This document shows positions 1,011 to 34,642 of a DNA stretch of 36,398 nt, piece after piece. Below the pieces are notes generated by a model, which did no database searches, had not been told where the DNA came from, and was given only the letters and a program-made list of their open reading frames with translations. This DNA comes from a virus. Taxonomy: Duplodnaviria > Heunggongvirae > Uroviricota > Caudoviricetes. The position numbers and the translations under genes were made by a program. The stretch is from the IMG/VR virus record IMGVR_UViG_2869965101_000006. One strand, written 5' to 3'. How positions within the stretch are numbered: position 1 is the first letter of the stretch; every line of letters starts with the position of its first letter.

Positions 1011-1988
1011 TTAAGCACCTCCTAGTGGATTAAACCTCACCGCATCCTGCAGGTAATCCGGCGCAAGATGGGCATAAATCATCGTTGTCTGAATCTTTGC
1101 GTGCCCCAGAATTTTCTGGAGCGTCAGAATATTGCCGCCGTTCATCATGAAATGACTGGCGAAGGTGTGGTGCAGCGCATGAACAGCCTGGCCGTCAGGA
1201 ACATCAGGTGCGACCGTTTTGATGACATCGCGAACCAATGAATAATCCAGCGTCGGAAACACCAGTTTCCCGCCCCGTTTTTTGATCTTTTCAAACAGGC
1301 TTTCAGAAATAGGAACGGTACGGTTTTTGCTGTTCTTCGTTTTTGAAAAAGTGATTCGACAATGAAGAACACGGCGCTGCTCCAGTGCCGCTACCTCGCC
1401 CCATCGCGCCCCGGTCGACAGAAGGATTTCGACAGCCAGTCGTTCATCGGGATTTTCAGCCAGTGCATCCAGCAACTGAACACATTCAGACTTACTCAGA
1501 TATCCCATTTCGCGCTCCTTAACCTTCATTCCTTTAAGGCCTTGAACGGGGTTATCGTTAAGAAAATGGCCGGATGAGATGAGTGCGGTAAACATCGCGC
1601 TTAACGCCCCAATCTCTCGATTTATGGTGCTGGGCTGTATCCCCTGCTCTATCCTGGACACACGTAGCTCGGTGAGCATCGTTGTATTAAGTTTATGCAC
1701 GCACGGGTCATCCATTGCTTCACTCAAGCGCAGCAATTTAAGGCGCGTGTTATGCCCTGACTTCATTAGCTGGCCGTGGTATTTCCACCACAAGTCAATA
1801 AGCACTGACAGAGGACGGCGATCAATAGAGTTTCCTTTCCACTCATTGTTATGCTGTTGCGCCAGCACCCACCGCTCATATAAAACTGCATCCGATTTCG
1901 TTTTAAATTTTTTGCGAATGCGTTTGCCTTTACGCCCCTCAGGGCACATGTCAAGAAGATACCCTCCCAGAATTGATTTTATGCTCAT
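1011..1988 (-). CDS. int: P2-type tyrosine integrase
   Basis: Start taken at internal Met (MSIKSILGG...) so as not to overlap the repressor; recalled similarity to P2 Int along the whole length, including the C-terminal HALHHTFAS...GHAKIQTTMIYAHL catalytic region. Confidence 0.9.
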   Translation of the reverse strand: MSIKSILGGYLLDMCPEGRKGKRIRKKFKTKSDAVLYERWVLAQQHNNEWKGNSIDRRPLSVLIDLWWKYHGQLMKSGHNTRLKLLRLSEAMDDPCVHKLNTTMLTELRVSRIEQGIQPSTINREIGALSAMFTALISSGHFLNDNPVQGLKGMKVKEREMGYLSKSECVQLLDALAENPDERLAVEILLSTGARWGEVAALEQRRVLHCRITFSKTKNSKNRTVPISESLFEKIKKRGGKLVFPTLDYSLVRDVIKTVAPDVPDGQAVHALHHTFASHFMMNGGNILTLQKILGHAKIQTTMIYAHLAPDYLQDAVRFNPLGGA

Positions 1989-2037
1989 TCGTGAAACCCC
2001 AGCGTTACAAGACCACCATGCCCCCAGCGTTCTATGA

Positions 2038-2346
2038 TTAGCCGGGCTGTGTACCAGTCTTGCGGGATTTTTGAGAAGACGATGTGTTTTCTGGCCCATC
2101 AGGGGAGAGAGAGGGACTGATCTGCCCAGCAGCCTCATTTGTTTTTCCCGTCATAAGCCAATTCATGTACTTAAAAAAGCGAGGGTGATTAACAATCTTG
2201 ATAAGCACTTCGCCCCCTATGTTTTCAATCCGCCCCGTTTCATAACGACGCAAAGTGCCGATAGGCACATCAATCAGGCCGCAAAATTCTTCGCGCGTTA
2301 AATCCTCTGATTCACGAATCACTCTAATTTTTTCACCGATAAGCAT
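2038..2346 (-). CDS. C: P2 C-type immunity repressor
   Basis: About 100 aa, divergent from cox; HTH-like N-terminus and a C-terminus (SSSQKSRKTG) resembling P2 C; start chosen at internal Met. Confidence 0.7.
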   Translation of the reverse strand: MLIGEKIRVIRESEDLTREEFCGLIDVPIGTLRRYETGRIENIGGEVLIKIVNHPRFFKYMNWLMTGKTNEAAGQISPSLSPDGPENTSSSQKSRKTGTQPG

Positions 2347-2442
2347 TGACAGTGTCCCTATAAGTACACTAAGCTTGCGCACAAGGTGTACTTATAAGCA
2401 CACCAAGTCACAAACAACCACAGATAGCGCAGGTTATCACAC
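2347..2442. promoter_or_regulatory. immunity switch region (divergent early/repressor promoters with operator repeats)
   Basis: Intergenic between divergent C and cox; direct repeats ctataagtacac (2358..2369) and cttataagcacac (2391..2403); TTGACA at 2346..2351. Confidence 0.5.
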
Positions 2443-2721
2443 ATGGCAAAAGTCCTGAACACACACGAACAGGCAGACTTTGAGCGTTTAGCAGCGTTCT
2501 ATCCCTACCGCGATGAGCATGGGTTACCAGTACTTGAAGAAAGCCTGAAAGATTACGCAAAGCGTACCAACCAAGCTGTTAACACAGTGAAAAGACAGGC
2601 TGACAGAGGTTCAATTCCCATCAACCAAGATGAAAAGAACTCAAGACGCACAGTAAATCTCTTCGCTCTTTTCCTGAAAACAATCAGGAGCGCAGAAAAA
2701 TACGTGCAGATGACAAAATAA
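2443..2721 (+). CDS. cox: Cox-like small early protein (92 aa)
   Basis: Position immediately rightward of the C/Pe switch and size match P2 cox; sequence identity not verified. Confidence 0.55.
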   Translation: MAKVLNTHEQADFERLAAFYPYRDEHGLPVLEESLKDYAKRTNQAVNTVKRQADRGSIPINQDEKNSRRTVNLFALFLKTIRSAEKYVQMTK

Positions 2722-3383: not shown

Positions 3384-3620
3384 ATGGGCAAAGAATATAA
3401 AACTCTCATTAACAAAGCACTTGAGCGTTTTTATTTTCGCTTAAGTGCATCAGGCGCTCATGCTGAACGTGCGGCCCGTGACTCATTGACCAGAGCAATC
3501 CGAAGTCTGTATGACGTGGCTTTTTACGCTGATGATCTGGATGCACTTAACGAACTTTCCGAGCTGATCTGTGCCGCAGTGGATTTGCCCCTATATTTCC
3601 AGACATCTGTTATCACTTAA
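3384..3620 (+). pseudogene. early-region ORF truncated by IS2; C-terminus now encoded by IS2 end sequence
   Basis: ORF runs into the IS2 terminal sequence at 3580; its last residues ([11 protein letters not shown]) are identical to the IS2-derived tail that also replaces the ogr C-terminus. Confidence 0.5.
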
Positions 3621-3844
3621 CCCATTACAAGCCCGCTGCCGCAGATATTCCCGTGGCGAGCGATAACCCAGCGCACTATGCGGATGCCATTCGTTATAAT
3701 GCTCGAACGCCTCTGCAAGGTTCTTTGCTGCCGTTAACCCGTCTGGTTTGGGCATGATACTGATGTAGTCACGCTTTATCGTTTTCACGAAGCTCTCTGC
3801 TATTCCGTTACTCTCCGGACTCCGCACCGCCGTGTTCTTCGGTT
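3580..3844 (-). mobile_element. IS2 remnant (one terminus plus 3' end of insD), about 265 bp
   Basis: 3580..3844 is identical to 33056..33320 of the full IS2 copy; the element is cut off by IS911 at 3845. Confidence 0.8.
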
Positions 3845-3916
3845 TGAAGTGGCACACTGAATTTGGCCACCTGAACAGAGGTGATATGCTCACCTCAGAA
3901 CAACACAGGTGCTCCA

Positions 3917-4338
<422 letters not shown>

Positions 4339-4609
4339 TTACGCAGTCAGGTACTTGAGCTACATGGCATCAGCCATGGTTCGGCCGGAGCAAGAAGCAT
4401 CGCCACAATGGCAACCCGGAGAGGCTACCAGATGGGACGCTGGCTTGCTGGCAGGCTCATGAAAGAGCTGGGGCTGGTCAGCTGTCAGCAGCCGACTCAC
4501 CGGTATAAACGTGGTGGTCATGAACATGTTGCTATCCCTAACTACCTTGAAAGGCTGAACCGCCCCGGGAATCCTGGAGACTAAACTCCCTGAGAAAGAG
4601 GTAAACAGG

Positions 4610-4932
4610 ATGACTAAAAATACTCGTTTTTCCCCCGAAGTCCGTCAGAGGGCGATTCGTATGGTTCTGGAAAGTCAGGGCGAATATGACTCACAGTGGG
4701 CGGCAATTTGTTCCATTGCCCCAAAGATTGGCTGTACACCGGAGACTCTGCGTGTCTGGGTACGCCAGCATGAGCGGGATACCGGAGGCGGTGATGGCGG
4801 GCTCACCACCGCTGAACGTCAGCGTCTGAAAGAGCTGGAACGTGAAAATCGTGAACTGCGCCGCAGTAACGATATCCTTCGCCAGGCTTCCGCTTATTTT
4901 GCGAAGGCGGAGTTCGACCGCCTCTGGAAAAA

Positions 4933-4936
<4 letters not shown>
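4610..4936 (+). CDS. IS629 OrfA
   Basis: 108-aa [24 protein letters not shown]..., IS3-family OrfA. Confidence 0.9.
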
Positions 4937-6395
<1,459 letters not shown>

Positions 6396-6406
6396 TGACC
6401 ACTTCA

Positions 6407-7982: not shown

Positions 7983-8472
7983 TCCCCCTCAAACTAGGGC
8001 GATAATCGCACATCGCCCTGCTGCACAATAGTGCACAAATTTGCACAATTTTTTTGAACGAATTTTTGCCCTTCCAGCCCGCGTGGCGGCTGGATCCGTC
8101 AAGGATCCGTGCGTGCACAAAAAAACGCGCTTTTTCTGCGCGCAGGTGACGGGGGAACAGCCCGCGTTTCAGGGGGTAAATAGCGTTCCCTTAACGATGT
8201 CGCAGCGACACGACAGAATGGCCGTATTTCTCACGCTGAGCGTGAAAAATACGTGAGGGATTCTGATTTGATGGGGTGAAAGGTAAGGCCGTCAAAATCG
8301 CACTGAGGCGGCGAGAACATGCAGTCAACGCGGTGGGATTGCGTAAGAGTCTGACCGTCGATGGTGGCGATAAACTGGAAGGCGTCGTGAAATTATCTGA
8401 CTGATACAGGAGCTGGAGAGTCGGGGCATAAATTTTTTATGCCCCGGCGAAGCAGCAGACAAGCGAAGCGCG

Positions 8473-9525
8473 TCAGGATGTGGGCTGGATGTCTAACAGT
8501 GCGTAAGGGTTAAAGCGGATCACCTCTTCGCCAAGCCAGTCATTGATGTGCTTCATGGCCTCCATGACGGGCATCAGCTCGTTAATTGCGTAAACCCGCG
8601 CGGCCTTCTCCACATCACCAAACGCACTTTTTTCACCCGGCATCGCCCCCATCAGTTGCGGCGGAACGCGGTGCGCAGCCAGCACATCATCACGGGATGC
8701 CGCCTTAACATTCATGAACTCATCCTTTGCGGTGATCTGCTGGAACGGCAAAATTTGCACCCCCTCTTTGCCCCCGTTGGGCGCATGAATGAGCACGTTT
8801 TTAAACGCACCACCACCACGCGCACCCTGTAGCGTTTCTTTCAGGGAGTCCATGCTTTCGCGGTTTACCTGCGCGGCACCGATGTAGATGATGCACCCGG
8901 CGTGGGATCCGTTGTCGTAATACAGTTTTCTGAACATGTCCGCCGAATGAGACAGGCTGGCCGAGAGTAATGCGCCGAGATATTCCGGCATGCCGTAGAT
9001 TTCCTGGTTAATGTCAGGATTCATCAGGTGACACACTTTGCCTGGGCGAAACTGAAACGCATCCTTGCCATCCTGCACATACCACCATGATTCAAGATCG
9101 CTTCCGCGTCGCATGTATTTCGCCAGGGCGTGCCGTAATTTAAGCGGTTCGCCGAGCATATTGCTTCGAAGCTCAAGGAATGCGTTACCGAACACAAACC
9201 AGTCCAGCGCCAGCGCCAGCGCCGAGAAATCCTACCGGGAAAGCAGCGGGTGCGGGATGTAGCAACCGAGCAATACATTGCGCTTAAAGTAAAGCGCAGA
9301 CTGATGCCAAGACGTTTGCCGGGCAGCTCTTGCCAGACCGTACCAGTCCACCGGGGGTTCATACCACCGCCCGTTATCAGCACAGTACATATTGTCCAGC
9401 AGGTCATGCCCGGTCAGGCGATAAGGACCATCAAATGTGAATGCACTGAGCGATGATTCTTTCCTGAGCGCATCAGCGAGATCAATGCGTGAACTCATGC
9501 GCACTTTTTTATTTTTTCTGCTCAT
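8473..9525 (-). pseudogene. portal protein (P2 Q-like) with in-frame TAG
   Basis: Two six-frame ORFs (9232..9525 and 8473..9195) are in the same frame, separated by a TAG at 9232..9234 on the minus strand. Confidence 0.8.
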
Positions 9526-11275
9526 CAGAACTCCATAACCGTGAAACGCTCGTTTTCTCCTTCGCCGCCAATCGGTTCGTTAATGACAGCAAGCATGGTT
9601 ACCCACGCAAGGTCGCCGTGGCTGATCCCCCTCGCTCGGTCCGTTTCGTAAGTGATAAAGCCGCCCGGTGTTTTCACCTTACGCACGGCGTTAAAGGCCG
9701 CGACCAGCTCGCGTTCGGCGCGATCGTATTCCCACCGCCCGGCACGCATTATTTGCAGCATTTTCAGTACCAGCGACCGTTTTGATGACAGCGTGAAGGT
9801 GTACGGAATAGCGGCAGGGAAAAACCGTTTCACTATCTGATAAACAGCCTCCCCGTTCCCGCCCGTCACATCAATGCCGATGTGTTCCACGTTGTAGCGA
9901 CACGTGAACTCTTCAATGACTCTGGCCTGTTCTTCAAACTCCAGCCCCTGAACGCGTCGCGTCTCCACCGTTCGAAAACGGCCACCAGGAACAGACGGAG
10001 GAACCACCACGGACACAGCGCCGCTGTCGCCGTTGCCACTGCTGCCGTTTGCGTCATACCCAATCCATACCGGACGATTCCCCATCGGGCGGGGAGCAAA
10101 AGGTTTCCAGTCTTTCCAGTCGTCGTATCCGTCAACGCCGCAGCCAATCAGGATATTCAGGTTAAATGCCGATTCCCCTTCGCGGACAAACTCGCACATA
10201 TAGAGATTGAGGAACTCGTCTTCGGTGTTTTCATCACGAATTTCGTCGATATCGGTGTGTTTCCAGCCGTGATTAACCACATCTTCCAGCGTGACAATTT
10301 GCCGCCACGTCCGGTCAGGGCAGATAAGCCCGTTATGCAGCGTTTTCCAGTCCACAGAAAAACGCTGGCGTTTATGCGAGGCCTTTTTCTCGTTCCAGCG
10401 GTCGCCGTTCCAGTAGGCGTATGCCTCGTGCGTTTCGGTGGATGGCGTGGAGAAGTAGGTGCGCCGCAGTCCGCTGAGGGTTGCCATAGCGCCAGCCACC
10501 TTGCGCAGTTCAGCAAAGCGACTGACCCAGAAAAATTCATCAAAATAAAAATTGCCCGTATAGGACTGTGCCGACGCAGCAGAAGTGCCGAGAAAATGCA
10601 GCTCTGCGCCGTTGGAGAGGATGATTTTATCGCCCCCTTTCAGCTCCACATCAACTTCAGCCGCGCCTTCTGAATAATGCTTTTAAACTGGAACGCCTGA
10701 CGACGCGACGCAGACAAAAAAATCTGGTTACGCTGGTAAGGTTGCGCCACATCGTCACGCAGCGCCATCAGCAGTGCTTCCTGTGCAAAATACCAGGTCG
10801 CCCCAATCTGTCGGGATTTCAGGATCATCCTGTTACGTATCCCGGCTTCCCTGCAAAGGGTCAGGGAGTCAAACCAGCCCCGCTGATGCCACTCCAGCCT
10901 GCTGATGATTTTTTCCCGCAGTGCGGCAATCTGTTCCGGCGTGAAATGATTTTTGAGTTTTTTCGCCCGGCCTTTCTTTCCTGCGGCCATCACATCCGGC
11001 TGGCCATCATGCAGCTTTTTAAGCTGCCGGGTCAGCAGGTCTATTTCCTTAAAGTCACCGCCTGTTTTATTCTGTTTTTCAGTAAGCTGGATGAGGCGCG
11101 CATCGATGGACTGCGTGACACGCTGCCCGGGTGGCGTTTCATCCCACTGGTCACGTTTTTTCCACGCATAAATCGTGTTCGGGTTTATTCCCATCAGACG
11201 TGATATTTCTGCGGGCGGATAACCCTGCCAGTAAAGTTGCCGCGCACGCTGGCGCACAAAAGCGTCCTGAATCAT
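9525..11275 (-). pseudogene. terminase large subunit (P2 P-like), frameshifted
   Basis: N-terminal ORF (10640..11275) and C-terminal ORF (9525..10649) are in different frames. Confidence 0.8.
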
Positions 11276-11429
11276 TGCTCCCCCTGAGTAATTACAGGAA
11301 GATTACCCGCGCGCGAAACTGTTCTCCTTAACCCTCTGTTCTGGCCGTTTTCTTACAACAAAAGCCCTTTGTATCAGCCTGTTACGCTTTGCCATCATGA
11401 CTGAAGAACCAGTCAGAGGGGCAAAAACT

Positions 11430-11885
11430 ATGGCTAATGAAAAAAAGACATCCCGCAAAAAGTTTCGCGTGGCTGTCTCCGGATCAACTGTTGATGGCCG
11501 TGAAATCAGTCCGGTGCATCTGCGTGAAGCCGCCGAGAACTTCAACCCGGATGTTTACGCTGCCCGCGTGAACGTTGAGCACTATCTCTCGCCATGCCCG
11601 TCAAGCGAATTTTCCGCAATGGGCGATGTCACCGCACTGAGTACGGAAGACATTACGGAAGGTCCGCTGGCCGGACGTACTGCGCTGTATGCAGAAATCG
11701 AACCGACCGAGCGCATGAAGCAGCTTGTTGCGGACGGCAAGAAAATCTATTCCAGTATCGAACTGCACCCGCAGTTCTCCGTTAACGGGCGCGCCTATCT
11801 GGTCGGGCTGGCGATGACCGACACCCCGGCAAGCCTGGGCACTGAGCGCCTGAAATTCACGGCACAGCAACGTCAGGCGGTGATG
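11430..11885 (+). pseudogene. capsid scaffold (P2 O-like) N-terminal fragment
   Basis: KKFRVAVSGSTVDGREISPVHLREAAENFNPDVY… resembles the P2 gpO N-terminus; similarity ends near LGTERLKF and the frame runs on into the endolysin. Confidence 0.7.
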
Positions 11886-11921
11886 ACGTTTAACAGTATC
11901 CAGGGTGAAGGAGAAGGACGA

Positions 11922-12314
11922 ATGAGCAACACATTTAAATTCAGCAGCCGGAGCGAAAAGAATTTGCAGGGTGTAAATCCTGATCTGGTGAAAGTGACCC
12001 GACGGGCACTGGAAATCTCGGAAGTGGATTTTGGTATCACCGAAGGGTTGCGCAGCCGTTACCGCCAGAAGCAACTGGTGGCCACGGGTAAGAGCCAGAC
12101 CATGAACAGCCGCCACCTTACGGGGCATGCCGTGGATGTTGTGGCTTATATCGGCAGCCAGGTGTCATGGGAATGGCCGCTGTACGAAAAAATCGCAGCA
12201 GCATTCAGACAGGCCAGCCGGGAACTGAATATTCCGGTGGAATGGGGCGGCGACTGGAAGACCCTGAAAGACGGACCGCATTTTCAGTTACCACACGGAG
12301 CCTATCCGGCATGA
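11922..12314 (+). CDS. endolysin, peptidase M15-like
   Basis: Internal ATG with AGGAGAAGG RBS; 130-aa product with M15-type motifs (HLTGHAVDV…WGGDW). Confidence 0.65.
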   Translation: MSNTFKFSSRSEKNLQGVNPDLVKVTRRALEISEVDFGITEGLRSRYRQKQLVATGKSQTMNSRHLTGHAVDVVAYIGSQVSWEWPLYEKIAAAFRQASRELNIPVEWGGDWKTLKDGPHFQLPHGAYPA

Positions 12315-12718
12315 AGCTCTGGCCCACGCTTGGCGTCGCTTTCCTTCTGACTGCCGGATGGGGAACATCCATGCGTCTGTCGTGGTCGCTGGGCCGGGAG
12401 AACGCCAGAAACGAAGCGCAGGCCAGCACCCTGAAAAGTACCGCCGACACCCTGAATATCATCAGCGCCGGGGTACAGGATATGCAGCAGGTGCTGGCGC
12501 AACTCCGCGTGGAAAATCAGCAACGCAATCAGGACGGAGAGGTAAGACGTGAACAGCTACGCAACGATATTGCAAAAGATGAATGCGCCCACGCTTTGCC
12601 TGACGCTCGTTTTACTGACAGGCTGCGCAGGCACGCAGAACGCGCCACTGCCAGCGCCGTCAGTCCGGCTTATACCGCAGACGCTGACCATACCGGTAAC
12701 GCCTCCCCCCTTCCCTGA
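12311..12718 (+). CDS. LysB/Rz-like inner-membrane spanin
   Basis: ATG overlaps the endolysin stop; N-terminal transmembrane helix then coiled-coil region. Confidence 0.6.
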   Translation: MKLWPTLGVAFLLTAGWGTSMRLSWSLGRENARNEAQASTLKSTADTLNIISAGVQDMQQVLAQLRVENQQRNQDGEVRREQLRNDIAKDECAHALPDARFTDRLRRHAERATASAVSPAYTADADHTGNASPLP

Positions 12719-12869
12719 CACTCCCACATGGGGAAATCTCGGTATATGGGGCGACCGCCTTCTGGATGCACTGGAAACCTGTAACGCGGATAAACGGGCC
12801 ATTGAATTACTGGAACAGCGCAGGCTGCAACGACTGAACAACGAGGATAACAACCATGCTGAAAACTGA
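12579..12869 (+). CDS. LysC/Rz1-like outer-membrane lipoprotein spanin
   Basis: Starts in the +1 frame inside lysB; lipobox LLTGC; proline-rich. Confidence 0.6.
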   Translation: MNAPTLCLTLVLLTGCAGTQNAPLPAPSVRLIPQTLTIPVTPPPFPDTPTWGNLGIWGDRLLDALETCNADKRAIELLEQRRLQRLNNEDNNHAEN

Positions 12870-13323
12870 TTCCCTGCGTGAAGCCATGACCCGTTCATGC
12901 CGATGGTGTCAGGCTAACCCGGAAAAATTCACCATTTTCGTGGAGAGCGGCAACATTGAAACGACCGGAGAAACCCCATCGTTTGTTTACCGCTATCAGA
13001 TGGTGATGTTTGTCATGGATTACGCCGGGGAGCTGGACGACCTCACGCTGCCGCTGCTGGCGTGGTTATCCGAAAATCAGCCACAGTTGTTGCTCAACCC
13101 TGAGCGTAATCAGGACATCAAATTCTCCGCCGTTATCAATGACGATGACAGCGCCGATCTCCTGTTTACGCTCCCCCTGCGGGAACGCGTTCGCATCACG
13201 CGCAGCAGTCAGGGCACACCGCAGGCAGAACACCTGCTGGAGCCAAAACCCCGCCTGCCATCTTCCGAAGGCGACTGGTCGCATGTATTCCAGGATGTGA
13301 CGTGGGGTGAAAGCGATGGATAA
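12856..13323 (+). CDS. tail completion protein (P2 R-like)
   Basis: 155-aa ORF at the conserved position after the lysis genes. Confidence 0.65.
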   Translation: MLKTDSLREAMTRSCRWCQANPEKFTIFVESGNIETTGETPSFVYRYQMVMFVMDYAGELDDLTLPLLAWLSENQPQLLLNPERNQDIKFSAVINDDDSADLLFTLPLRERVRITRSSQGTPQAEHLLEPKPRLPSSEGDWSHVFQDVTWGESDG

Positions 13324-13951
13324 GGCATTCACTCGCGTGGATGAAACCTTTGAAGCCATCCGCGACAGCCTGAATCAGCAGGCCATCAATAACATCGCCA
13401 GAAAGCTGGCACAGGATTTACGCCGCGCCCAGCAGGCACGTATCCGGTCACAGAAAGCGCCGGACGGGACCGCATGGACACCACGCAGACGCCACGTAAC
13501 CCGGATACAGGAGCGCATTCGCTTTATCTGGAATAACGAAGCACGCACGCTGAAAAACTGGCATCACGACACGGGGAAATACGGGCGAACCATCACCGGG
13601 TGGGATGAGGATAAAAACAGCATCCGCACGTTTTACCGGGATGACATCGACCGCTTTCTGGAAATACGCACCCGGCGCATCAACCAGGACAGCACAAAGC
13701 GCGTCCCCATGTTCGTAAAACTGCGCACCGCCCGCTACCTGAAAGCCCGTGCAGATGCTTCCGGTGTGACGGTGGGTTACAGCGGCGTGGCCGCACGTAT
13801 TGCACGCGTTCATCAGTTCGGTGAGCGCGATCAGGTTGCGCCGGGCATTTTCACCGATTACCCGGTACGTGAGCTGCTGGGTATCAGCCAGGCAGATGAG
13901 CGCCCGATTTATAACACGGTGCTGGGCCGGATTGCAGAGGCTGTACGGTGA
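13316..13951 (+). CDS. virion morphogenesis/tail completion protein (P2 S-like)
   Basis: Overlaps R stop and V start; position in the conserved R-S-V-W-J-I order. Confidence 0.55.
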   Translation: MDKAFTRVDETFEAIRDSLNQQAINNIARKLAQDLRRAQQARIRSQKAPDGTAWTPRRRHVTRIQERIRFIWNNEARTLKNWHHDTGKYGRTITGWDEDKNSIRTFYRDDIDRFLEIRTRRINQDSTKRVPMFVKLRTARYLKARADASGVTVGYSGVAARIARVHQFGERDQVAPGIFTDYPVRELLGISQADERPIYNTVLGRIAEAVR

Positions 13952-14529
13952 GCGCAGAACTCATGCGGCTACTGAGCAATATCATCCGCACCGGGATCAT
14001 CTCTGAAGTTGATGAGAAGTCCTGGCGCGTGCGCGTTCGCAGCGGCGAACTGGAAACAGGTTGGCTGCGCTGGAACACCACTCGCGCGGGAGCCTTCAAT
14101 GTGTGGCTGCCGCCATCACCAGGCGAACAGGTGGTAATTGCCTGCATTGGCGGCAACCCGGAAACCGCCATGATAATTGGCAGCCTGTGGAGTGATGCCA
14201 TTCCGGCCCCCGGCAAAAGCCTGAAAGAAATCGTGGTCAGCGCGCCGGATGGCGCGGTGTTCCGCTACGACGCGGACGCAGGCGCACTGAGCGCCAGCGG
14301 CATGAAAACAGCCACCCTGCAGGCATCCGTCAGCGTGACACTGGATACGCCCGTCGTGGAATGCACAGACCTTCTGAGAACGGCGACGCTTGACGTCACA
14401 AAAGGGGGAAAGATGAGCGGCAATATCACGCACAGCGGCGGCAATTTCACCTCAAACGGCATCACAGTGCATACGCATAAACACGGTGGCGTTAAAGGTG
14501 GCAGCGATTCGACAGGAGGCCCGCAGTGA
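13948..14529 (+). CDS. baseplate spike/assembly protein (P2 V-like)
   Basis: 193-aa ORF, translationally coupled, in the conserved order. Confidence 0.75.
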   Translation: MSAELMRLLSNIIRTGIISEVDEKSWRVRVRSGELETGWLRWNTTRAGAFNVWLPPSPGEQVVIACIGGNPETAMIIGSLWSDAIPAPGKSLKEIVVSAPDGAVFRYDADAGALSASGMKTATLQASVSVTLDTPVVECTDLLRTATLDVTKGGKMSGNITHSGGNFTSNGITVHTHKHGGVKGGSDSTGGPQ

Positions 14530-14876
14530 CAACCCGCTACACAGGAATGAACCCGGACGGAACGGGAAACCTGAACGATATGGAGCACCTGAAACAGTCA
14601 GTCAGGGACATCCTGACCACCCCGCTGGCAAGCCGGGTTATGCGACGGGAATATGGCAGCCTTGTGCCTGATTTGATTGACGAACCCATGAATAACACCA
14701 CGCGTCTGCAATGCATGAGTGCTGCCGTGATTGCGCTGACACGATGGGAACCCCGCATTGCCCTGGACGCTATCGACGTTGTCTGGAAGGCAGGAGGCCG
14801 CGCCGGGGTGACGCTGTCGGGCACTGTCATGCAGACCATGCAGAATGTTGAATTAACCATCACGCTGAGGGAGTAA
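14526..14876 (+). CDS. baseplate protein (P2 W-like)
   Basis: 116-aa ORF coupled to V, in the conserved order. Confidence 0.75.
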   Translation: MTTRYTGMNPDGTGNLNDMEHLKQSVRDILTTPLASRVMRREYGSLVPDLIDEPMNNTTRLQCMSAAVIALTRWEPRIALDAIDVVWKAGGRAGVTLSGTVMQTMQNVELTITLRE

Positions 14877-14879
14877 ATC

Positions 14880-15776
14880 ATGCCTGCCGTTGACCTTTCA
14901 CAGTTACCGGAACCCGCCATCATCGCGGAGCCTGACTTTGAGGCAATTCTGGCTGACACAAAGGCCATGATGATTGCGTCCTATCCCGCCGAACAGCGTG
15001 AAGCCGTTTCCGCCGCGCTGGAGCTGGAATCGGAACCCCTTAACGTTATCGCTCAAACCATGTCGTTTCGTGAAATGCTGTTACGCCAGCGGGTCAATGA
15101 GGGTGCACGCGCCTGCATGCTAAGCCACAGCGCCGGGACAGACCTGGACAACCTCGCGGGCAATATGAACACAAAGCGCCTGGTTATCACTCCGGCAACG
15201 GATACCACCGATGCAGTGATGGAAAGTGACACCTCGCTGAGACTACGGGCGCAACGGGCATATGACGGTCTGAGTGTTGCTGGCCCGTCAGGTGCATACG
15301 AGTATTTTGCACGCAGCGCCAGCGGTCTGGTACGCGATGCGCGGGCCATCAGCCCGTCTCCGGCCAACGTGACGGTTTCCATCCTGTCCACTGAGGGCGA
15401 CGGCACAGCAACGGAGGCGTTGCTTAATACCGTTCGCGCCGTTCTGAATGCAGAGGATACCCGCCCGGTGGCCGACCGCCTGACCGTACAGAGTGCCAGA
15501 ATCGTGACATGGCGGCTGAATGCAAAACTGTACTTTTACCCCGGCCCGGAATCCGAACCTATTCTGGCCGCGGCTGAATCGTCGTTCAGGAAGTGGCTGG
15601 CTGAGCAGGGGCTTATCGGTCAGGACGTGGCGTTGTCCGCCATTGCTGCCGCACTGCATGTGCACGGTGTGCAACGCGTGGAGATAATCGAACCCACACA
15701 GAATATGGCCATCAGCGACATACAGGCGGCGCGCTGTGAGTCATTCACCATCAGCGAAGGTGGACGCAATGAGTAA
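14880..15776 (+). CDS. baseplate protein (P2 J-like)
   Basis: 298-aa ORF in the conserved order. Confidence 0.8.
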   Translation: MPAVDLSQLPEPAIIAEPDFEAILADTKAMMIASYPAEQREAVSAALELESEPLNVIAQTMSFREMLLRQRVNEGARACMLSHSAGTDLDNLAGNMNTKRLVITPATDTTDAVMESDTSLRLRAQRAYDGLSVAGPSGAYEYFARSASGLVRDARAISPSPANVTVSILSTEGDGTATEALLNTVRAVLNAEDTRPVADRLTVQSARIVTWRLNAKLYFYPGPESEPILAAAESSFRKWLAEQGLIGQDVALSAIAAALHVHGVQRVEIIEPTQNMAISDIQAARCESFTISEGGRNE

Positions 15777-16299
15777 TTCGTTGTTACCACCATCAGCCAG
15801 CAATTTCATGCGTTGTGCCGAAGCCGTCGGAACACGCATTACAGACATTCCGGTAGACCTCAACACGCTGTGGTCGCCGGACACCTGCCCGGTGCATCTG
15901 CTGCCTTATCTCGCCTGGGCGTTTTCCGTTGACCGCTGGGATCGCAACTGGCCGGAAGAGACAAAGCGACAGGTTATTCGTGATGCATGGCTGATACACC
16001 GACACAAAGGGACCATCAGCGCACTGCGCCGGGCCATTGAGCCGCTGGGATACCTCATTCGCGTGTCTGAGTGGTGGGAGTTCGGCGGAGAACCGGGAAC
16101 ATTTACCGTTGAAGTCGGCACGCTGGACAGTGGCGTGACGGAGGAAATGTATCTGGAAATGGAGCGGTTGATTGCTGATGCCCGCCCGGTCAGCCGCCAC
16201 ATGACAGGGCTGAATATCATTCAGGAAATTCCGGGGGATATTTTCGCAGCGGCGGCAACTTATGACGGTGAAGTTATTACCATTTATCCAGGCGATTAA
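15769..16299 (+). CDS. baseplate/tail protein (P2 I-like)
   Basis: ATG at 15769 overlapping the J stop. Confidence 0.75.
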   Translation: MSNSLLPPSASNFMRCAEAVGTRITDIPVDLNTLWSPDTCPVHLLPYLAWAFSVDRWDRNWPEETKRQVIRDAWLIHRHKGTISALRRAIEPLGYLIRVSEWWEFGGEPGTFTVEVGTLDSGVTEEMYLEMERLIADARPVSRHMTGLNIIQEIPGDIFAAAATYDGEVITIYPGD

Positions 16300-16832
16300 G
16301 CATGAGTACCACAACACGAAAATTTAAAACCATTATCACCAATACGGGTGCAAAAAAATTAGCTCAGGTAGCCGCGCCAGATGGTAAGCCTGTCCGCCTG
16401 ACTCATATGGCCGTGGGCGACGGTGGCGGCACGTTGCCCACACCAGACAGTAAGCAGACCCGTCTGGTGCATGAGGTGTGGCGACATACTGTTAATCGCG
16501 TCATCCTGGACGCAACACATCAGAACCGCATTATTGCGGAGCTGGTTATTCCTCCTGAAACGGGCGGATTCTGGATCCGGGAAATTGGTGTATTTGATGA
16601 GCACGGCGATTTAATCGCGGTGGGAAATACTGCCGAAAGTTACAAGCCAGCCGTTGCCGAAGGGTCCGGTCGTGCACAAACATTTCGCACCATTCTGACC
16701 GTATCCAGCACTGCCACCGTGGCGCTTACCGTGGACAACACCATGGTGATGGCCACAGTGGATTACGTGGATGACAAACTGAAAGAGCATGAACAGTCAC
16801 GACGTCACCCGGACGCCTCGCTGACCGCAAAA

Positions 16833-17228
16833 GGCTTTGTTCAACTCAGTAGCGCCACTAACAGCGTGTCTGAAACGCAGGCTGCAACGCCGAAAGCAGT
16901 AAAGGCCGCGTATGATCTTGCTAACGGTAAATATACTGCGCAGGATGCCAGCACGACGCGAAAAGGCCTTGTCCAGCTCAGTAGCGCCACCAACAGCACG
17001 TCTGAAACGCAGGCTGCAACGCCGAAAGCAGTAAAGGCCGCGTATGACCTTGCTAACGCAAAATATACCGCTCAGGACGCCACGACGGCACAAAAAGGGA
17101 TAGTCCAGCTCAGTAGTGCCACCAACAGCACGTCTGAAACACTGGCCGCGACATCGAAAGCGGTTAAGGCGGTAATGGATGAAACGAACAAGAAAGCGCC
17201 CTTAAACAGTCCTGCGCTGACCGGAACG
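16833..17228 (+). repeat. about three tandem 132-bp coding repeats in the tail fibre gene
   Basis: Near-identical DNA units starting near 16833, 16965 and 17097, encoding …VQLSSATNS.SET.AATPKAVKAAYDLAN.KYTAQDA…. Confidence 0.8.
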
Positions 17229-17565
17229 CCAACAACGCCAACTGCGCGACAGGGAACGAATAATACCCAAATCGCAAGCACGGCTTTCGTTATGGCTGCG
17301 ATTGCCGCCCTTGTAGATTCGTCACCTGACGCACTGAATACGCTGAACGAGTTAGCGGCGGCGCTGGGAAACGACCCGAATTTTGCGACCACCATGACTA
17401 ACGCGCTTGCGGGTAAGCAACCGAAAGATGCCACCCTGACGGCGCTGGCCGGGCTTGCTACTGCGGCAGACAGGTTTCCGTATTTTACGGGGAATGATGT
17501 CGCCAGCCTGGCAACCCTGACAAAAGTCGGGCGGGATATTCTTGCGAAATCGACCGTTGCTGCCG

Positions 17566-17591
17566 TTATCGAATACCTCGGTTTACGAGAA
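17566..17591. other. gix/hix-type inversion crossover site, left copy inside the fibre gene
   Basis: TTATCGAATACCTCGGTTTACGAGAA matches the reverse complement of 21021..21046 at 21 of 26 positions, with an identical ACCTCGGTTTAC core. Confidence 0.6.
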
Positions 17592-18009
17592 CTCGGCACA
17601 AGCGGGGAGAAAATACCGTTACTCAGTACAGCGAATACCTGGACCAATCGACAAACATTCAGCGGTGGCCTTTCTGGGGAACTGTCCGGCAATGCCGCTA
17701 CTGCAACAAAGCTGAAAACAGCACGAAAAATTGCTGGAGTTGGTTTTGATGGTTCTAGCGATATTTCAATTAGTGCCAAAAATGTCAATGCATTTGCACT
17801 CCGACAAACAGGTAATACTGTTAATGGTGATACATCCATTGGATGGAATTGGGATAGTAGTGCATATAACGCCCTGATTGGTGGTGCATCTGCATTAATT
17901 CTTCACTTTAATATAAATGCTGGTAGCTGTCCTGCCGTACAATTCCGTGTGAATTATAAAAATGGTGGCATTTCCTACAGGTCGGCTCGTGATGGTTATG
18001 GGGTTGAAT

Positions 18010-18777
18010 GGTGATGCTGCCAACTTACTGATTTAGTGTATGATGGTGTTTTTGAGGTGCTCCAGTGGCTTCTGTTTCTATCAGCTGTCCCTCCTGTTCA
18101 GCTACTGACGGGGTGGTGCGTAACGGCAAAAGCACTGCCGGACATCAGCGCTATCTCTGCTCTCACTGCCGTAAAACATGGCAACTGCAGTTCACTTACA
18201 CCGCTTCTCAACCCGGTACGCACCAGAAAATTATTGATATGGCCATGAATGGCGTTGGATGCCGGGCAACTGCACGCATTATGGGCGTTAGCCTCAACAC
18301 GATTTTACGTCACTTAAAAAACTCAGGCCGCAGTCGGTAACCTCGCGCATACAGCCGGGCAGTGACGTCATCGTCTGCGCGGAAATGGACGAACAGTGGG
18401 GATACGTCGGGGCTAAATCGCGCCAGCGCTGGCTGTTTTACGCGTATGACAGGCTCCGGAAGACGGTTGTTGCGCACGTATTCGGTGAACGCACTATGGC
18501 GACGCTGGGGCGTCTTATGAGCTTGCTGTCACCCTTTGACGTGGTGATATGGATGACGGATGGCTGGCCACTGTATGAATCCCGCCTGAAGGGAAAGCTG
18601 CACGTAATCAGCAAGCGATATACGCAGCGAATTGAGCGGCATAACCTGAATCTGAGGCAGCACCTGGCACGGCTGGGACGGAAGTCGCTGTCGTTCTCAA
18701 AATCGGTGGAGCTGCATGACAAAGTCATCGGGCATTATCTGAACATAAAACACTATCAATAAGTTGGAGTCATTACC
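18010..18777 (+). mobile_element. IS1, 768 bp, with 9-bp target duplication GGGTTGAAT
   Basis: Ends GGTGATGCTGCCAACTTACTGAT… and …ATCAATAAGTTGGAGTCATTACC; insA 18065..18340 and insB frame 18385..18762; duplication at 18001..18009 and 18778..18786. Confidence 0.9.
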
Positions 18778-19066
18778 GGGTTGAATTAGGTTGGTCAGAT
18801 TTCTATACCACGACACGAAAACCTTCAGCGGGAGATGTTGGTGCATATACGCGGGCAGAATGTAACTCAAGGTTTATTACAGGTATTCGCCTTGGCGGTC
18901 TGTCATCTGTTCAGACATGGAATGGTCCCGGCTGGTCTGACAGGTCAGGTTATGTCGTTACGGGTTCAGTTAACGGAAACCGTGATGAATTAATTGATAC
19001 AACACAGGCAAGGCCAATTCAGTATTGCATTAATGGGACGTGGTATAACGCGGGGAGTATTTAACG

Positions 19067-19600
19067 ATGATGCACTTAAAAAACATTACTGCTGGCAACC
19101 CTAAAACAAAAGAGCAATACCAGCTAACAAAGCAATTTAACATCAAATGGCTTTATTCAGATGATGGAAAAAACTGGTATGAGGAGCAAAAGAATTTCCA
19201 GCCAGACACTTTGAAAATGGTCTATGACCATAACGGCGTTATTATTTGTATTGAAAAGGATGTTTCAGCAATTAATCCGGAAGGCGCAAGCGTCGTTGAA
19301 TTACCTGATATTACAGCAAATCGCCGGGCTGATATTTCGGGGAAATGGTTGTTCAAAGATGGCGTAGTGATAAAGCGAACTTATACCGAGGAAGAGCAGA
19401 GGCAACAAGCGGAAAATGAAAAGCAAAGCCTGTTGCAACTTGTCAGGGATAAAACCCAGCTATGGGACTCACAGCTACGGCTGGGCATCATTTCCGACGA
19501 GAATAAACAAAAATTAACCGAGTGGATGCTCTATGCGCAGAAAGTCGAATCTACAGACACCTCCAGCCTGCCAGTAACGTTTCCCGAACAACCAGAATGA
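19067..19600 (+). CDS. tail fibre assembly protein (P2 G-like)
   Basis: 177-aa ORF directly after the fibre gene; paralogue of the inverted copy at 19629..20156. Confidence 0.75.
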   Translation: MMHLKNITAGNPKTKEQYQLTKQFNIKWLYSDDGKNWYEEQKNFQPDTLKMVYDHNGVIICIEKDVSAINPEGASVVELPDITANRRADISGKWLFKDGVVIKRTYTEEEQRQQAENEKQSLLQLVRDKTQLWDSQLRLGIISDENKQKLTEWMLYAQKVESTDTSSLPVTFPEQPE

Positions 19601-19628
19601 GAGAAGGCCCGATATTGGGCCTTAATTT

Positions 19629-20156
19629 TTACTCAGGCTTTTGTGGCCATTCGGGATTTGCTGTATCCACACGGCTGACCAGAACGCTGTAGCGTTCCCA
19701 TGACTCCAGTCGTGTGCGTTCCTCATCCATCGCCATATTCAGCCTGACAGCGCGTTCCAGTGGCTGAATAACGCTTTCAGCTTCAGAAAGCAACGCGACC
19801 TTTTGTGATTCGGCCTGTTGTTGCTGTTCGTCTGCTGTATAAATCCGCTTAACCACAGTTCCGTCCTTAAACATCCACTTCCCTGAATCATCGGCGCGAC
19901 GATTGGCTGTTATATCTGGAATCTCAACGACACTAAAGCCTTCGGGATTAAGCGTTGAGGCATCTTTGGTTATGGCAACAATAATATTATTTTCGTCGTA
20001 TACAATCTTTATGGTGTCGTCCTGAAAGTTATTTACTTCCTCATACCAGTTTTTACCGTCTTCGGACCATAACCAGATAACATCAAAATTCTTTGTTAGC
20101 TGATATTGTTCTTTTGTTTTTGGATTTCCGGACTTAATATTTTTTAAATGCTGCAT
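19629..20156 (-). CDS. alternative tail fibre assembly protein of the invertible segment
   Basis: 175-aa ORF; N-terminal ~45 residues nearly identical to the 19067..19600 product, then divergent. Confidence 0.75.
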
Positions 20157-20159
20157 AAT

Positions 20160-21020
20160 TTACACCTGTGCGACGTTATACCATGTGCCATTGATGTATT
20201 TTTGTATTGGTCTGAAGATGGCTTCATCATCGCCATCTACTTCACCAATGATTCTTAATCCGGTAATTGCGTGTCCGGCTTTTTCATAACGACCACCACG
20301 CGCCATCAATTGAACAACACGCGTACCCAGGCGAACATCTTTTACATAGCGTGAATCAAAATTCCCCCAGTTGCTGGGCTGTATCTGACCGTTAACAGAA
20401 AATATTACCGAGTTATCTGTATTTCGCTGGCTATAGAAATGCCATCCTGCCTCATCGCCTAACTCTGCAACTACTGGACGGGTTGAAGCACCCCATAAAT
20501 TAAACGTTGCATTCTTTGTGAAGTTGTTGGAGCTGGATAGCGTGAATTTTTTACCATCCCCGGCCTGAATATTTTTAAAAGCAATAGCCACTCCATTCTG
20601 AAAGCGGAATACACGCTGACTATTAGCATAAACATCCAGAATACCGTCTCCATTCTGTTTAAATCCGGTGTCATTATCACCAAGAACAATAGAGCTACCA
20701 CCTAACGCATTCGTCGAACCAACTCCAAGACTGCCATTAATGACAGCATTAACAAGAATATTTAGTGCATCCCATTTCAGCGTCATCAGGTCTTTTGTTG
20801 TGGTGCTCTGGCGGCTTCTCCATTTGAAATATTCATTGCCGTTGTCGCCTGTTTCAAACCACATGTATGAATCAGTGTCACCATCGGCATCATTTTTAAA
20901 TCCAATCTTCGCCCAGTCAGTATTTCGAATCCAGGCAAGGATTGAGTCATTTTCAAAAGTAAGCCCACCGGACAAGGTATCGCCATTTTTTTGCACGGCG
21001 TTACCAGCCCTGTTTACCGT
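20160..21020 (-). CDS. alternative tail fibre C-terminal segment, promoterless and start-less; expressed only after inversion
   Basis: Frame stays open on the minus strand from 20160 up to the gix site at 21021..21046; no ATG of its own. Confidence 0.65.
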   Translation of the reverse strand, partial: TVNRAGNAVQKNGDTLSGGLTFENDSILAWIRNTDWAKIGFKNDADGDTDSYMWFETGDNGNEYFKWRSRQSTTTKDLMTLKWDALNILVNAVINGSLGVGSTNALGGSSIVLGDNDTGFKQNGDGILDVYANSQRVFRFQNGVAIAFKNIQAGDGKKFTLSSSNNFTKNATFNLWGASTRPVVAELGDEAGWHFYSQRNTDNSVIFSVNGQIQPSNWGNFDSRYVKDVRLGTRVVQLMARGGRYEKAGHAITGLRIIGEVDGDDEAIFRPIQKYINGTWYNVAQV

Positions 21021-21046
21021 TTCCTGTAAACCGAGGTTTTAAATAA
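21021..21046. other. gix/hix-type inversion crossover site, right copy
   Basis: TTCCTGTAAACCGAGGTTTTAAATAA, closely resembling the Mu gix sequence as recalled; inverted partner at 17566..17591. Confidence 0.6.
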
Positions 21047-21100
21047 TGGCCGTTTCTGGCCTGCATGGCATGATTTGCGCTTTTGGACGGGAGATTCAGT

Positions 21101-21700
21101 GTGCTGATTGGCTATGTAAGGGTATCAACAAATGACCAGAATACAGACCTGCAACGAAACGCTCTTGTTTGTGCAGGATGTGAACAAATATTTGAAGATA
21201 AATTAAGCGGGACAAAGACAGACCGACCGGGATTAAAACGCGCTTTAAAGCGCCTTCAAAAAGGTGACACGCTGGTTGTCTGGAAACTGGATCGCCTCGG
21301 GCGAAGCATGAAACATCTGATTTCTCTCGTCGGGGAACTACGGGAGCGAGGGATTAATTTTCGCAGTCTGACCGACAGCATAGACACATCTTCTCCAATG
21401 GGGCGTTTTTTCTTCCACGTGATGGGTGCCCTGGCTGAAATGGAACGTGAATTAATTGTTGAACGTACACTGGCCGGGCTGGCGGCAGCGCGCGCAAGGG
21501 GGCGCACAGGCGGACGTCGACCGAAGCTGACAAAAGAACAGCATGAGCAAATAGCAAGGCTAATCAAAAACGGGCACGACAGAAAACAACTGGCAATAAT
21601 TTACGGCATTGGCACATCGACGATTTATCGTTATCACCCTGTAGGCGATATACAGACTGAAGAAACAACCGGGCAGACTCAGGAAAATGAAAACCGCTAA
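21101..21700 (+). CDS. Gin/Pin/Cin/Hin-family serine DNA invertase
   Basis: GTG start giving MLIGYVRVSTNDQ… with catalytic-serine motif and C-terminal HTH; near-identical to Mu Gin as recalled. Confidence 0.85.
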   Translation: MLIGYVRVSTNDQNTDLQRNALVCAGCEQIFEDKLSGTKTDRPGLKRALKRLQKGDTLVVWKLDRLGRSMKHLISLVGELRERGINFRSLTDSIDTSSPMGRFFFHVMGALAEMERELIVERTLAGLAAARARGRTGGRRPKLTKEQHEQIARLIKNGHDRKQLAIIYGIGTSTIYRYHPVGDIQTEETTGQTQENENR

Positions 21701-25620: not shown

Positions 25621-26905
25621 GCCAAGCCCAAGCGCGGAACGGATGCGATCGGGCACAATGTCCTTGCCGTCCTTCGGTGATGCTGCCAACTTACTGATTT
25701 AGTGTATGATGGTGTTTTTGAGGTGCTCCAGTGGCTTCTGTTTCTATCAGCTGTCCCTCCTGTTCAGCTACTGACGGGGTGGTGCGTAACGGCAAAAGCA
25801 CTGCCGGACATCAGCGCTATCTCTGCTCTCACTGCCGTAAAACATGGCAACTGCAGTTCACTTACACCGCTTCTCAACCCGGTACGCACCAGAAAATTAT
25901 TGATATGGCCATGAATGGCGTTGGATGCCGGGCAACTGCACGCATTATGGGCGTTAGCCTCAACACGATTTTACGTCACTTAAAAAACTCAGGCCGCAGT
26001 CGGTAACCTCGCGCATACAGCCGGGCAGTGACGTCATCGTCTGCGCGGAAATGGACGAACAGTGGGGATACGTCGGGGCTAAATCGCGCCAGCGCTGGCT
26101 GTTTTACGCGTATGACAGGCTCCGGAAGACGGTTGTTGCGCACGTATTCGGTGAACGCACTATGGCGACGCTGGGGCGTCTTATGAGCTTGCTGTCACCC
26201 TTTGACGTGGTGATATGGATGACGGATGGCTGGCCACTGTATGAATCCCGCCTGAAGGGAAAGCTGCACGTAATCAGCAAGCGATATACGCAGCGAATTG
26301 AGCGGCATAACCTGAATCTGAGGCAGCACCTGGCACGGCTGGGACGGAAGTCGCTGTCGTTCTCAAAATCGGTGGAGCTGCATGACAAAGTCATCGGGCA
26401 TTATCTGAACATAAAACACTATCAATAAGTTGGAGTCATTACCCCGTCCTTCCGGTAAATGAAGTTCAGCAGGTCAATCTCCCACAACGGGCGATCGTTA
26501 ACACTCAGCTTGTAGTAGGTGTTTTAATGGCGTAAGTGTGTGATGTGGCTTCGCCCTGTTTGGCTTCCCCCATATCAATTTCCGTCACACGTCCGCGCAT
26601 TTCGACTTCATACAGGTCGCTTTCTGCATCGGTGTAGTATTCACCCGCAAAACGCAGCAGCGTGCCGTCAATCGTGCCGCCATACTTAAGGAACAGCTCA
26701 CGAACTGCGCCCCCATGACAAAGCTCGCATCAAGCGCGGAGTCGTCCAGACCGAGATCAATACTTACCGCACCCATCATGCCACCACCCCGGTAGCTGTC
26801 GGTTTTGCGCGTCAGCTTAGGCAGAGTGACGGACGTCACATTACCCACTTCGTTTTCACCATCCACAAACAGCGTAAAAAAGCGAAGATGTTTTGGCACA
26901 GCCAT
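25621..26905 (-). pseudogene. tail tube (P2 FII-like) destroyed by IS1 and frameshifts
   Basis: N-terminus (…SVTLPKLTRK…DLGLDD…) matches FII; homology then changes frame at least twice (around 26500 and 26700) and is split by IS1. Confidence 0.75.
25676..26443 (+). mobile_element. IS1, second copy, 768 bp, with 9-bp target duplication CCGTCCTTC
   Basis: Identical to the copy at 18010..18777, same orientation; duplication at 25667..25675 and 26444..26452. Confidence 0.9.
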
Positions 26906-32600: not shown

Positions 32601-32724
32601 TTCAGAGAATATCAAAAGTGACTCAGATAAATTCAAGCTAACTCTTAACTATGAGTTGAATGTAGTATTTGAAGGAAACGCTGATTTAAAAATAGCTCAC
32701 TCGCAAAGAGTGACATCAGAATAA
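29605..32724 (+). CDS. large hypothetical membrane-anchored protein (1039 aa), AT-rich cargo gene
   Basis: Uninterrupted ORF; four hydrophobic helices in the first ~190 aa then ~850 aa of Asn/Lys/Ile-rich soluble sequence; no Walker A, HxH or other obvious catalytic motif by eye. Confidence 0.75.
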   Translation: MIGQFLSATEILAKNYVRNKMVKNPFYSNLKWNFIEKNIIRLTSSPVKSVLCISAFSFVLLYVGYLNELFIKNNLLHYFPFRHSLTEWQTTILSGQLTIIGIVYPLVIGLVSILFQKKADRKIAQTAYQRYSGFMLAGLSGLFLSGFILLSVLIKTVFGSYLYGIACLISILWLLINIVLSIWFFIVSLEILDDVKRQIIIKRYIAFEIVMPHICNKISAKLRLYPIYQKHNYSNLEIKQADYKGEYISVASSYSKEDELSLYHRPFQLTLNLINYQLKKKNHFASFVIGDNRTKETESTGKILFSVKNIKPDSLLIKILKQCFYRAPIKGGDFSVSLTMQAITADTYMYLRDSDLISFDNAISALINNFNNLCDLYFFQDDNTNNNFLLITTELFERSFQYEFSDEVYKISNNSMDKINLSERFFELCLWSGVRIINNRKHLISNELCIYMGITRSQWSILTEWFRNNQSLLNASLRSRYNRILRTYTTVWEQYQESINFRFCNTENSDLFELFCKTQLQELPSMIIDATQTRDPSTIDTAVDLINRWQHSMNIDSHSVEKYSYKGQLFNPGFFISKKLNFNSDREWFNIAIINALTDMRICTCLYLTSRINTSDKLMTHYIKLILEGKLIDQTGGYETPTEEIDNASQLIKILIRICLWTWSENMEHNGWMNSLARRLRDYDKTDMVMGRVYSNVFDCGFIDMEQSWVQLLLIFSNKNDSVSKEIKEAIENNYITYREKQRLIGVLSKICNSIEYTKIKLTLTLDDLQTKKENLRKLLQEHINMLKKDLDMRLQDAAIDVHRLDSTARKTSEHLRKRIKKTLPLSLFKSIDFKQASDCFTKHKISIKIDKEPYAEGIESIPYINEGDIQADLILKDIQRIILSNLFSTGCSQHTVIEDFNMLIDHIKSSADLAGKLVLVMSKEIFQQYNRMLFDNPNLRELMRKNDDGSMNITTESGTRKVYFLPFVNQPFSLVVKDNYFTKLIIREYDNNKLVNVTSENIKSDSDKFKLTLNYELNVVFEGNADLKIAHSQRVTSE

Positions 32725-32859: not shown

Positions 32860-33096
32860 ATGTTCCGTTGTCCGCTTTGTGGCGCATCTGCCCGTATCCG
32901 CACCAGTCGTCCGGAAAATGATTCAAACACCGTGAGACAAAAGTATTATCAGTGTAACAATCTAGAATGCGGCGTATGTTTCTCAACACTGGAAGCCTTC
33001 CACAAATTCACTTCAAAGCACGCCTCCCCCATTCACTCATCAGAGGGCATCCCGTTGGATTTGCCCCTATATTTCCAGACATCTGTTATCACTTAA
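32860..33096 (+). pseudogene. ogr: late-gene activator ogr, 3' end replaced by the IS2 insertion
   Basis: MFRCPLCGASARIRTSR…YYQCNNLECGVCFS zinc-finger N-terminus like P2 Ogr; from codon 66 the frame is IS2 sequence; original 3' end at 34388..34452. Confidence 0.8.
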
Positions 33097-34336: not shown

Positions 34337-34642
34337 TTATTTAAGTGATACTGGTTGTCTGGAGATTCAGGGGGCCAGTCTACCCGTGGCATGAACTGCC
34401 AACTTCACACAGAGGAAACAATCAGATGAGTTTGCCCTTACCTCAGAATTAACGAGCAGAATTGCCGGAGTAACAAAAAAGCGATAGATTACGCGCGGGT
34501 GCCTTTCGGCTGATGGTCGGAGGGAATACCTGAAGGCCAGATGTGGAAAGGCCCCGGAAAACATTTTTGTTTAACCGAGGCCCTAACCGTCTACCCTAAG
34601 CAAGTGATAGGTTAGCGCCTCCCCGAAAAAGGAGCAAGCGCT

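Follow-up and report, generated by a model that had tools for sequence, protein, structure and literature searches.

The continuous open reading frame at positions 11430..12314 (+) of the DNA analysed here (a stretch of 36,398 nucleotides, hereafter the window) joins the N-terminal part of a gpO protein to a complete M15-type endolysin. We are highly confident that this fusion is an accidental chimera: one repeat-to-repeat deletion produced it in a cryptic P88-like prophage carried by a clonal lineage of Shigella boydii. The element as a whole is a decaying P2-like, P88-type (Xuanwuvirus) prophage of S. boydii, and the fusion deletion is one of at least seven inactivating lesions in it.

The ORF encodes 294 amino acids. 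Its longest version in the ORF list starts at 11397; we use the start at 11430 (MANEKK...), which corresponds to the annotated start of the homologous P88 gene. The chimeric product consists of gpO residues 1–160, four joining residues (GEGR) and the complete 130-residue endolysin. Pfam places Phage_GPO (PF05929) at ORF residues 10–153, equivalent to positions 2–145 of the 268-position profile (E = 1.3e-63), and Peptidase_M15_4 (PF13539) at residues 222–287 (E = 3.6e-11, 43.9 bits against a cut-off of 25). PHROGs assigns the same two halves to head maturation protease/scaffold and then to endolysin. An earlier note, made from the letters of this DNA, had described a single frame running from an O-like part into an M15 endolysin, and the ORF list and both domain databases confirm this. 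Base-level alignment to P88 gives the reading frame across the junction as ...NSIQGE-GEGR-MSNTFKF..., the joining residues GEGR being the 3′ end of the holin gene and the endolysin ribosome-binding region, read in the endolysin frame. The short linker of the earlier note is thus real (4 aa), but its estimate of about 150 residues for the O part is to be corrected to 160.

The O part (11430..11909, +) is 98.8% identical to residues 1–161 of P88 gpO and comprises the N-terminal serine-protease domain followed by 17 residues of the middle region. In P2, gpO residues 1–141 are the protease that cuts gpN and gpO itself, with S107 as a catalytic residue, and residues 195–284 are the scaffolding domain, which is needed for procapsid assembly (PMC7552001). 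The N-terminal protease domain of the fusion is homologous to that of P2 gpO (65 of 141 residues identical) and has the conserved Asp/His/Ser of PF05929: D22, H51 and S109 align with P2 D19, H48 and S107. The LGTExLxF motif that stands before the P2 self-cleavage site at 141|142 is also conserved, and F143|T144 of the fusion aligns with that site. The roles of D19 and H48 in P2 gpO were reportedly addressed by Chang et al. in 2009. The earlier note had named genuine scaffold sequence beyond LGTERLKF as a finding that would speak against a fusion. The alignment to P88 shows that the 17 residues past this motif (TAQQRQAVMTFNSIQGE) are indeed gpO sequence, but the frame then switches to sequence that lies upstream of the endolysin, and the fusion reading stands.

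Judged by alignment to the P2 gpO domain map, the retained O fragment is the protease domain (the equivalent of P2 residues 1–141, plus 17 aa) and the scaffolding domain is among the losses. Neither Pfam nor the alignments to P88 and P2 gpO detected a C-terminal scaffolding domain in the fusion, all sequence past residue 160 having been replaced; where P2 gpO carries residues 195–284, the endolysin stands instead. What had been called a scaffold N-terminus is therefore the N-terminal part of gpO, but not its scaffolding part. Downstream, no major capsid gene N adjoins the gpO sequence, and P88 N had no tblastn match anywhere in the window. Because it lacks both the scaffolding domain and an adjacent capsid gene, the fusion ORF is not a functional gpO scaffolding protein.

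The endolysin half, in contrast to the truncated gpO, is intact. The coding sequence (11922..12314, +; 130 aa plus stop) specifies a protein identical to the P88 endolysin at 130 of 130 positions. Its M15 domain scores above the Pfam gathering score, and the match is full length against the endolysin of P88, a plaque-forming phage. Peptidoglycan activity is predicted from the identity to the P88 product. The ATG at 11922 is preceded by GGAGAAGGACGA, so that the ribosome-binding site and start codon that the earlier note had proposed are both in place. The last nucleotides of the deleted holin gene (11911..11921, +; GAGAAGGACGA) align to P88 18171–18181 and constitute the native ribosome-binding region of the endolysin; in P88 the holin ends at 18185, overlapping the endolysin ATG.

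Downstream of the endolysin, lysB, lysC, R and S follow in the order found in P88. LysB (12311..12718, +) is an Rz-like spanin, 98.5% identical to P88 LysB and assigned to phrog_214 and DUF2570. The gene for the Rz1-like spanin LysC (12549..12869, +; Pfam PF23793, E = 1e-12) overlaps lysB, and its start is called at 12672 in other assemblies. All that is left of the holin gene is its final ∼ 25 nt, and tblastn with the P88 holin gave no match in the window. A hydropathy scan of all small ORFs yielded no holin-like candidate either, the only credible membrane proteins being Hok and LysB. Since it has no holin, the canonical holin–endolysin–spanin lysis cassette is incomplete, as the earlier note had claimed.

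The origin of the fusion is evident from comparison with intact relatives. When positions 11300–12500 were compared by megablast with phage records and with 5,426 complete genomes of E. coli, the query split in two: bases 1–611 of the query matched GPO scaffold genes at ∼ 99% identity and bases 599–1201 matched endolysin regions at ∼ 98%. No record in this set covered both halves of the ORF. The overlap of the two matches (query 599–611) suggested a microhomology of 13 bp, which we rejected as an effect of gapped extension, since the repeat measures 10 bp on base-level inspection. Among annotated records, the best reference is Escherichia phage P88 (Xuanwuvirus P88, Peduoviridae), a P2-like phage that forms plaques and can be induced with mitomycin (PMC5285337); relatives of it have been noted in S. 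boydii. The closest intact relative that the searches turned up is the P88-like prophage of E. coli ETEC4088 (NZ_CP122629.1). In whole-window blastn, positions 8022–11910 correspond to P88 10903–14786 (97.7% identity) and positions 11901–17586 to P88 18161–23846 (98.2% identity). The ETEC4088 prophage matches the two flanks of the junction at 99.5% and 99.7% identity.

Comparison with P88 and the ETEC4088 prophage places the deletion junction at 11901..11910 (+), which is the sole surviving copy of a 10-bp direct repeat, CAGGGTGAAG. In P88 this sequence occurs at 14777 (O codons ∼ 158–161) and again 3,384 bp further on at 18161, inside the 3′ end of the holin gene, 21 nt before the endolysin ATG. 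In the ETEC4088 prophage, the distance between the two copies is 3,387 bp, and N, M, L, X and the holin gene lie in the interval. CAGGGTGAAG is one of only two 10-mers common to the P88 O gene and the holin–endolysin segment. Because one copy of the repeat has been kept and the intervening DNA is missing in its entirety, we interpret the junction as a deletion between short direct repeats, and no observation speaks against this deletion. The size of 3–4 kb suggested by the earlier note agrees with the distances measured in both relatives, whereas its breakpoint (about 11860..11890) has to be moved to the microhomology at 11901–11910, to which the alignment with P88 maps it.

The interval of P88 that is deleted here comprises the last 118 codons of O, N (major capsid), M (small terminase), L (head completion), X (tail X) and the holin gene except for its last ∼ 25 nt. 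When all 52 P88 proteins were compared with the 36.4-kb window by tblastn, there was no trace of N, M, L, X or holin. Those ORFs that are explained neither by P88 homology nor by IS elements contained no capsid or holin gene according to Pfam, PHROGs and PADLOC; apart from Hok and LysB, these checks and the hydropathy scan turned up only function-unknown proteins. The genes reported as absent from between the two halves of the ORF are thus not found elsewhere in the window. Since capsid, scaffolding domain, small terminase, head completion, tail X and holin are all missing, neither heads nor holin-dependent lysis are possible, and the earlier statement that the prophage cannot build capsids is borne out.

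The late O operon of the intact ancestor had the order O-N-M-L-X-holin-endolysin-lysB/C-R-S. Recombination or replication slippage between the two copies of CAGGGTGAAG would then have left one copy and removed ∼ 3.4 kb, as the anatomy of the junction suggests; slippage and illegitimate recombination are not distinguishable from sequence. The O start now reads into the endolysin because the two genes share a frame, the deleted length is a multiple of three and there is no stop codon in the 11 nt before the ATG. That the deletion happens to be in frame is a matter of chance. The predicted product is a gpO protease domain without a scaffolding domain, joined to a wild-type endolysin.

Beyond the junction, P88 and the ETEC4088 prophage share the gene order of the window and 97.7–99.7% nucleotide identity with it on both sides. 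The window differs from both in the absence of the 3,384–3,387 bp, in additional pseudogenising lesions, in IS insertions and in a different integrase/repressor module. The integrase is 43% and the repressor 37% identical to the P88 proteins, compared with ∼ 98% for the late genes, and the Cox-like gene is also divergent (window 1011–2721); the immunity and integration module is mosaic. The invertible tail-fibre segment (17587–21650) has the opposite orientation to that of P88, such that the alternative C-terminus of the fibre, together with the assembly gene, faces the constant part of H; a DNA invertase gene lies at 21101–21649.

Several further genes deserve mention. A 1039-aa ORF with N-terminal hydrophobic helices (29605–32724, +) lies in a low-GC insert (31–36%) between tail gene D and ogr. 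It had no match in Pfam, PHROG or PADLOC; of the 5,426 complete E. coli genomes, only 5 carry it, labelled 'MFS transporter' or hypothetical. The ETEC4088 prophage also carries this rare cargo gene, which is possibly a defence candidate. A Hok/MokW-like toxin gene is located near the prophage end (34643–34783, +), and an IS110-family transposase gene (35202–36398, +) runs off the right edge of the window. Just outside the integrase, two small ORFs at 209–1008 (−) encode a 146-aa protein with a C-terminal TM helix and a 120-aa protein, which belong to the function-unknown families phrog_9415 and phrog_4293; they may be part of a neighbouring phage remnant.

The remaining lesions show how far the decay has gone. 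The P2-like head module Q, P, O, N, M, L is incomplete: Q is interrupted by a nonsense codon and P by a frameshift, O survives only in truncated, fused form, and N, M and L are missing. Translation of the portal gene (8473..9525, −) against P88 revealed a nonsense codon (CAG to TAG) at codon 98, and indel mapping a 6-nt tandem duplication (CGCCAG) near 9208. The large terminase gene (9525..11275, −) carries a −1 frameshift at 10664, a single-base deletion that turns GCCGCGGCC into GCCGCGCC; it appears as two ORFs and as two tblastn HSPs in different frames. Both the portal and the terminase lesions are common to all sampled assemblies. Two identical 768-bp copies of IS1 interrupt the variable region of the tail fibre (18010–18777) and the tail tube gene FII (25676–26443). 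The copy in FII is flanked by a 9-bp target duplication, and FII has suffered two 1-nt deletions as well (∼ 26526 and ∼ 26715).

A nested IS3-family block (3579–6406; an IS inside an IS) has taken the place of the P88 early region, with loss of the replication endonuclease gene and the 5′ part of parM; the P88 replication endonuclease had no tblastn match in the window. The gene for the Ogr/Delta-type late activator (32860..33096, +) retains an intact zinc finger (Pfam PF04606, E = 4e-14). Compared with the 86-aa P88 ORF, its last ∼ 21 codons are replaced by a 1,330-bp IS2-like element (33054–34383), of which a 265-bp partial copy is found at 3580–3844. With replication gene A absent and Ogr no longer intact, the element is not an intact P2-like (Peduoviridae) prophage. 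Deletional and IS-mediated decay of prophages is typical of Shigella genomes, and what we observe is an ordinary cryptic prophage decaying by deletion and IS insertion. It shares with other cryptic, IS-ridden prophages of Shigella and E. coli the many independent lesions, the IS1, IS2-like and IS3-family insertions, the loss of replication and head genes, and clonal fixation. There is no difference in kind; only the in-frame deletion that gives a two-domain ORF is unusual.

The divergent P/O intergenic region (11276..11429, +) is where the late promoter of the O operon would be expected. This region is almost unaltered, with 2 differences from P88 over 166 aligned nucleotides (11270–11435), and the P2 record shows pO and an activator site at the equivalent position, driving O-N-M-L-X-Y-K-lysA-lysB-R-S. 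A sigma-70 promoter scan of 11200–14100 found no sites, and hence no candidate for an internal endolysin promoter, within the range of such a scan, which does not cover activator-dependent late promoters of the P2 type. If the late promoter fires, one mRNA could give rise to both the 294-aa chimera and the native 130-aa endolysin. Expression of the fusion is probably low, because the late promoter needs Ogr, whose gene is truncated at its 3′ end by an IS element, and because the replication and early region has been replaced by IS elements. The cascade by which the prophage would activate itself is thus probably broken. P2 Ogr, however, reportedly tolerates truncation at its C-terminus, and the truncated Ogr may still be active. 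Alternatively, the late promoter could be trans-activated from elsewhere in the genome, by a second P2-like prophage or a satellite of the P4 type. The fusion ORF contains no hydrophobic segment, and neither does the endolysin (maximum 19-aa hydropathy 0.54). With no membrane or signal segment and no holin, either product, if made, would be expected to stay in the cytoplasm and be harmless.

The exact 294-aa protein occurs on 92 public contigs. We fetched 10 loci, among them some on complete ∼ 4.5-Mb chromosomes (CP026762, CP026797, CP041513) and some in Logan assemblies of separate SRA runs, and all have the same gene context and an identical 48-nt junction. The locus in CP026762.1 matches the window without a single difference across 12,885 bp, and the loci differ by 0–8 mismatches per ∼ 12.9 kb. 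In a search of 5.8 billion proteins, only nine variants, all of 294 aa, combined both domains among 2,543 homologues at E ≤ 1e-10; the other matches listed cover 55% of the query. Each of the nine differs by a single residue, and those with a name are from S. boydii, including strain CDC 3083-94, whose product is annotated as 'phage capsid scaffolding protein (GpO)'. The junction 48-mer had no exact match among the GTDB species representatives, to which the S. boydii assemblies with the junction do not belong. The near-identity of the loci, together with the small set of variants whose named members are all S. boydii, indicates one event that became fixed in one clonal lineage.

Could the fusion have been selected as a domesticated gene, either as a self-cleaving protease-lysin or as part of a head-less, tailocin-like element with tail and lysis genes? 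In favour of this, none of the sampled strains has a broken frame, the fusion keeps the protease triad and the counterpart of the gpO self-cleavage site, and its endolysin shows 100% identity to the one of a viable phage. Seven of the eight observed substitutions fall in the O part, a bias that is not significant (p ∼ 0.07, binomial estimate). The loci are clonal, however, with the 0–8 mismatches given above, and the open frame therefore carries no signal of selection; the architecture is moreover confined to one lineage. As to a tailocin, the loss of head genes with retention of many P2-type tail genes and some of the lysis genes gives the element a superficial likeness to R-type pyocins, which combine a P2-like tail with a lysis cassette and have no head genes. 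In contrast to R-type tailocins, with their intact sheath, tube, baseplate and fibre genes and working lysis cassette, the window has a tube gene broken by IS1 and two frameshifts, a fibre gene with another IS1, no holin, and portal and terminase genes that persist as pseudogenes. The element cannot work as a tailocin, and we consider selection of the fusion very unlikely. A similarly low probability attaches to the idea that the chimera is made and active, with the protease cutting at the F143|T144 equivalent to free an endolysin with an N-terminal extension of ∼ 21 residues, or with S. boydii using the protein as a cytoplasmic protease–peptidoglycan hydrolase, for instance for autolysis or when a further P2- or P4-like element trans-activates it.

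The two other explanations have next to no probability. An artefact of sequencing or assembly, with two prophage regions collapsed across a short repeat, might be suspected from the position of the junction within a 10-bp repeat and from the lack of any complete E. coli genome or phage record that spans it, but the identical 48-nt junction and context in 10 independently assembled records and the exact protein on 92 contigs exclude this, and 10 bp is far too short a repeat for assembly collapse. P2-like phages are mosaic, and the integrase/repressor module described above differs strongly from that of P88, but modular exchange with a phage whose lysis cassette naturally follows O is just as implausible: the same relatives match both sides of the junction at 98–99.7% identity, the join coincides exactly with the repeat that is found at both positions in those relatives, and the megablast search revealed the order O–endolysin in no phage record.

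Accidental deletion between the two copies of CAGGGTGAAG thus accounts for the fusion as an undescribed instance of a well-known kind of prophage decay, of small scientific value, that introduces no new mechanism or biological question. It does set a trap for annotation, since the GpO label hides the endolysin half of the product, or the ORF may be miscounted as a novel domain architecture. For the lineage, the junction 48-mer is a specific marker, and for P2-like prophages the locus is a cleanly resolved example of how short direct repeats delete prophage modules and create chimeric ORFs.
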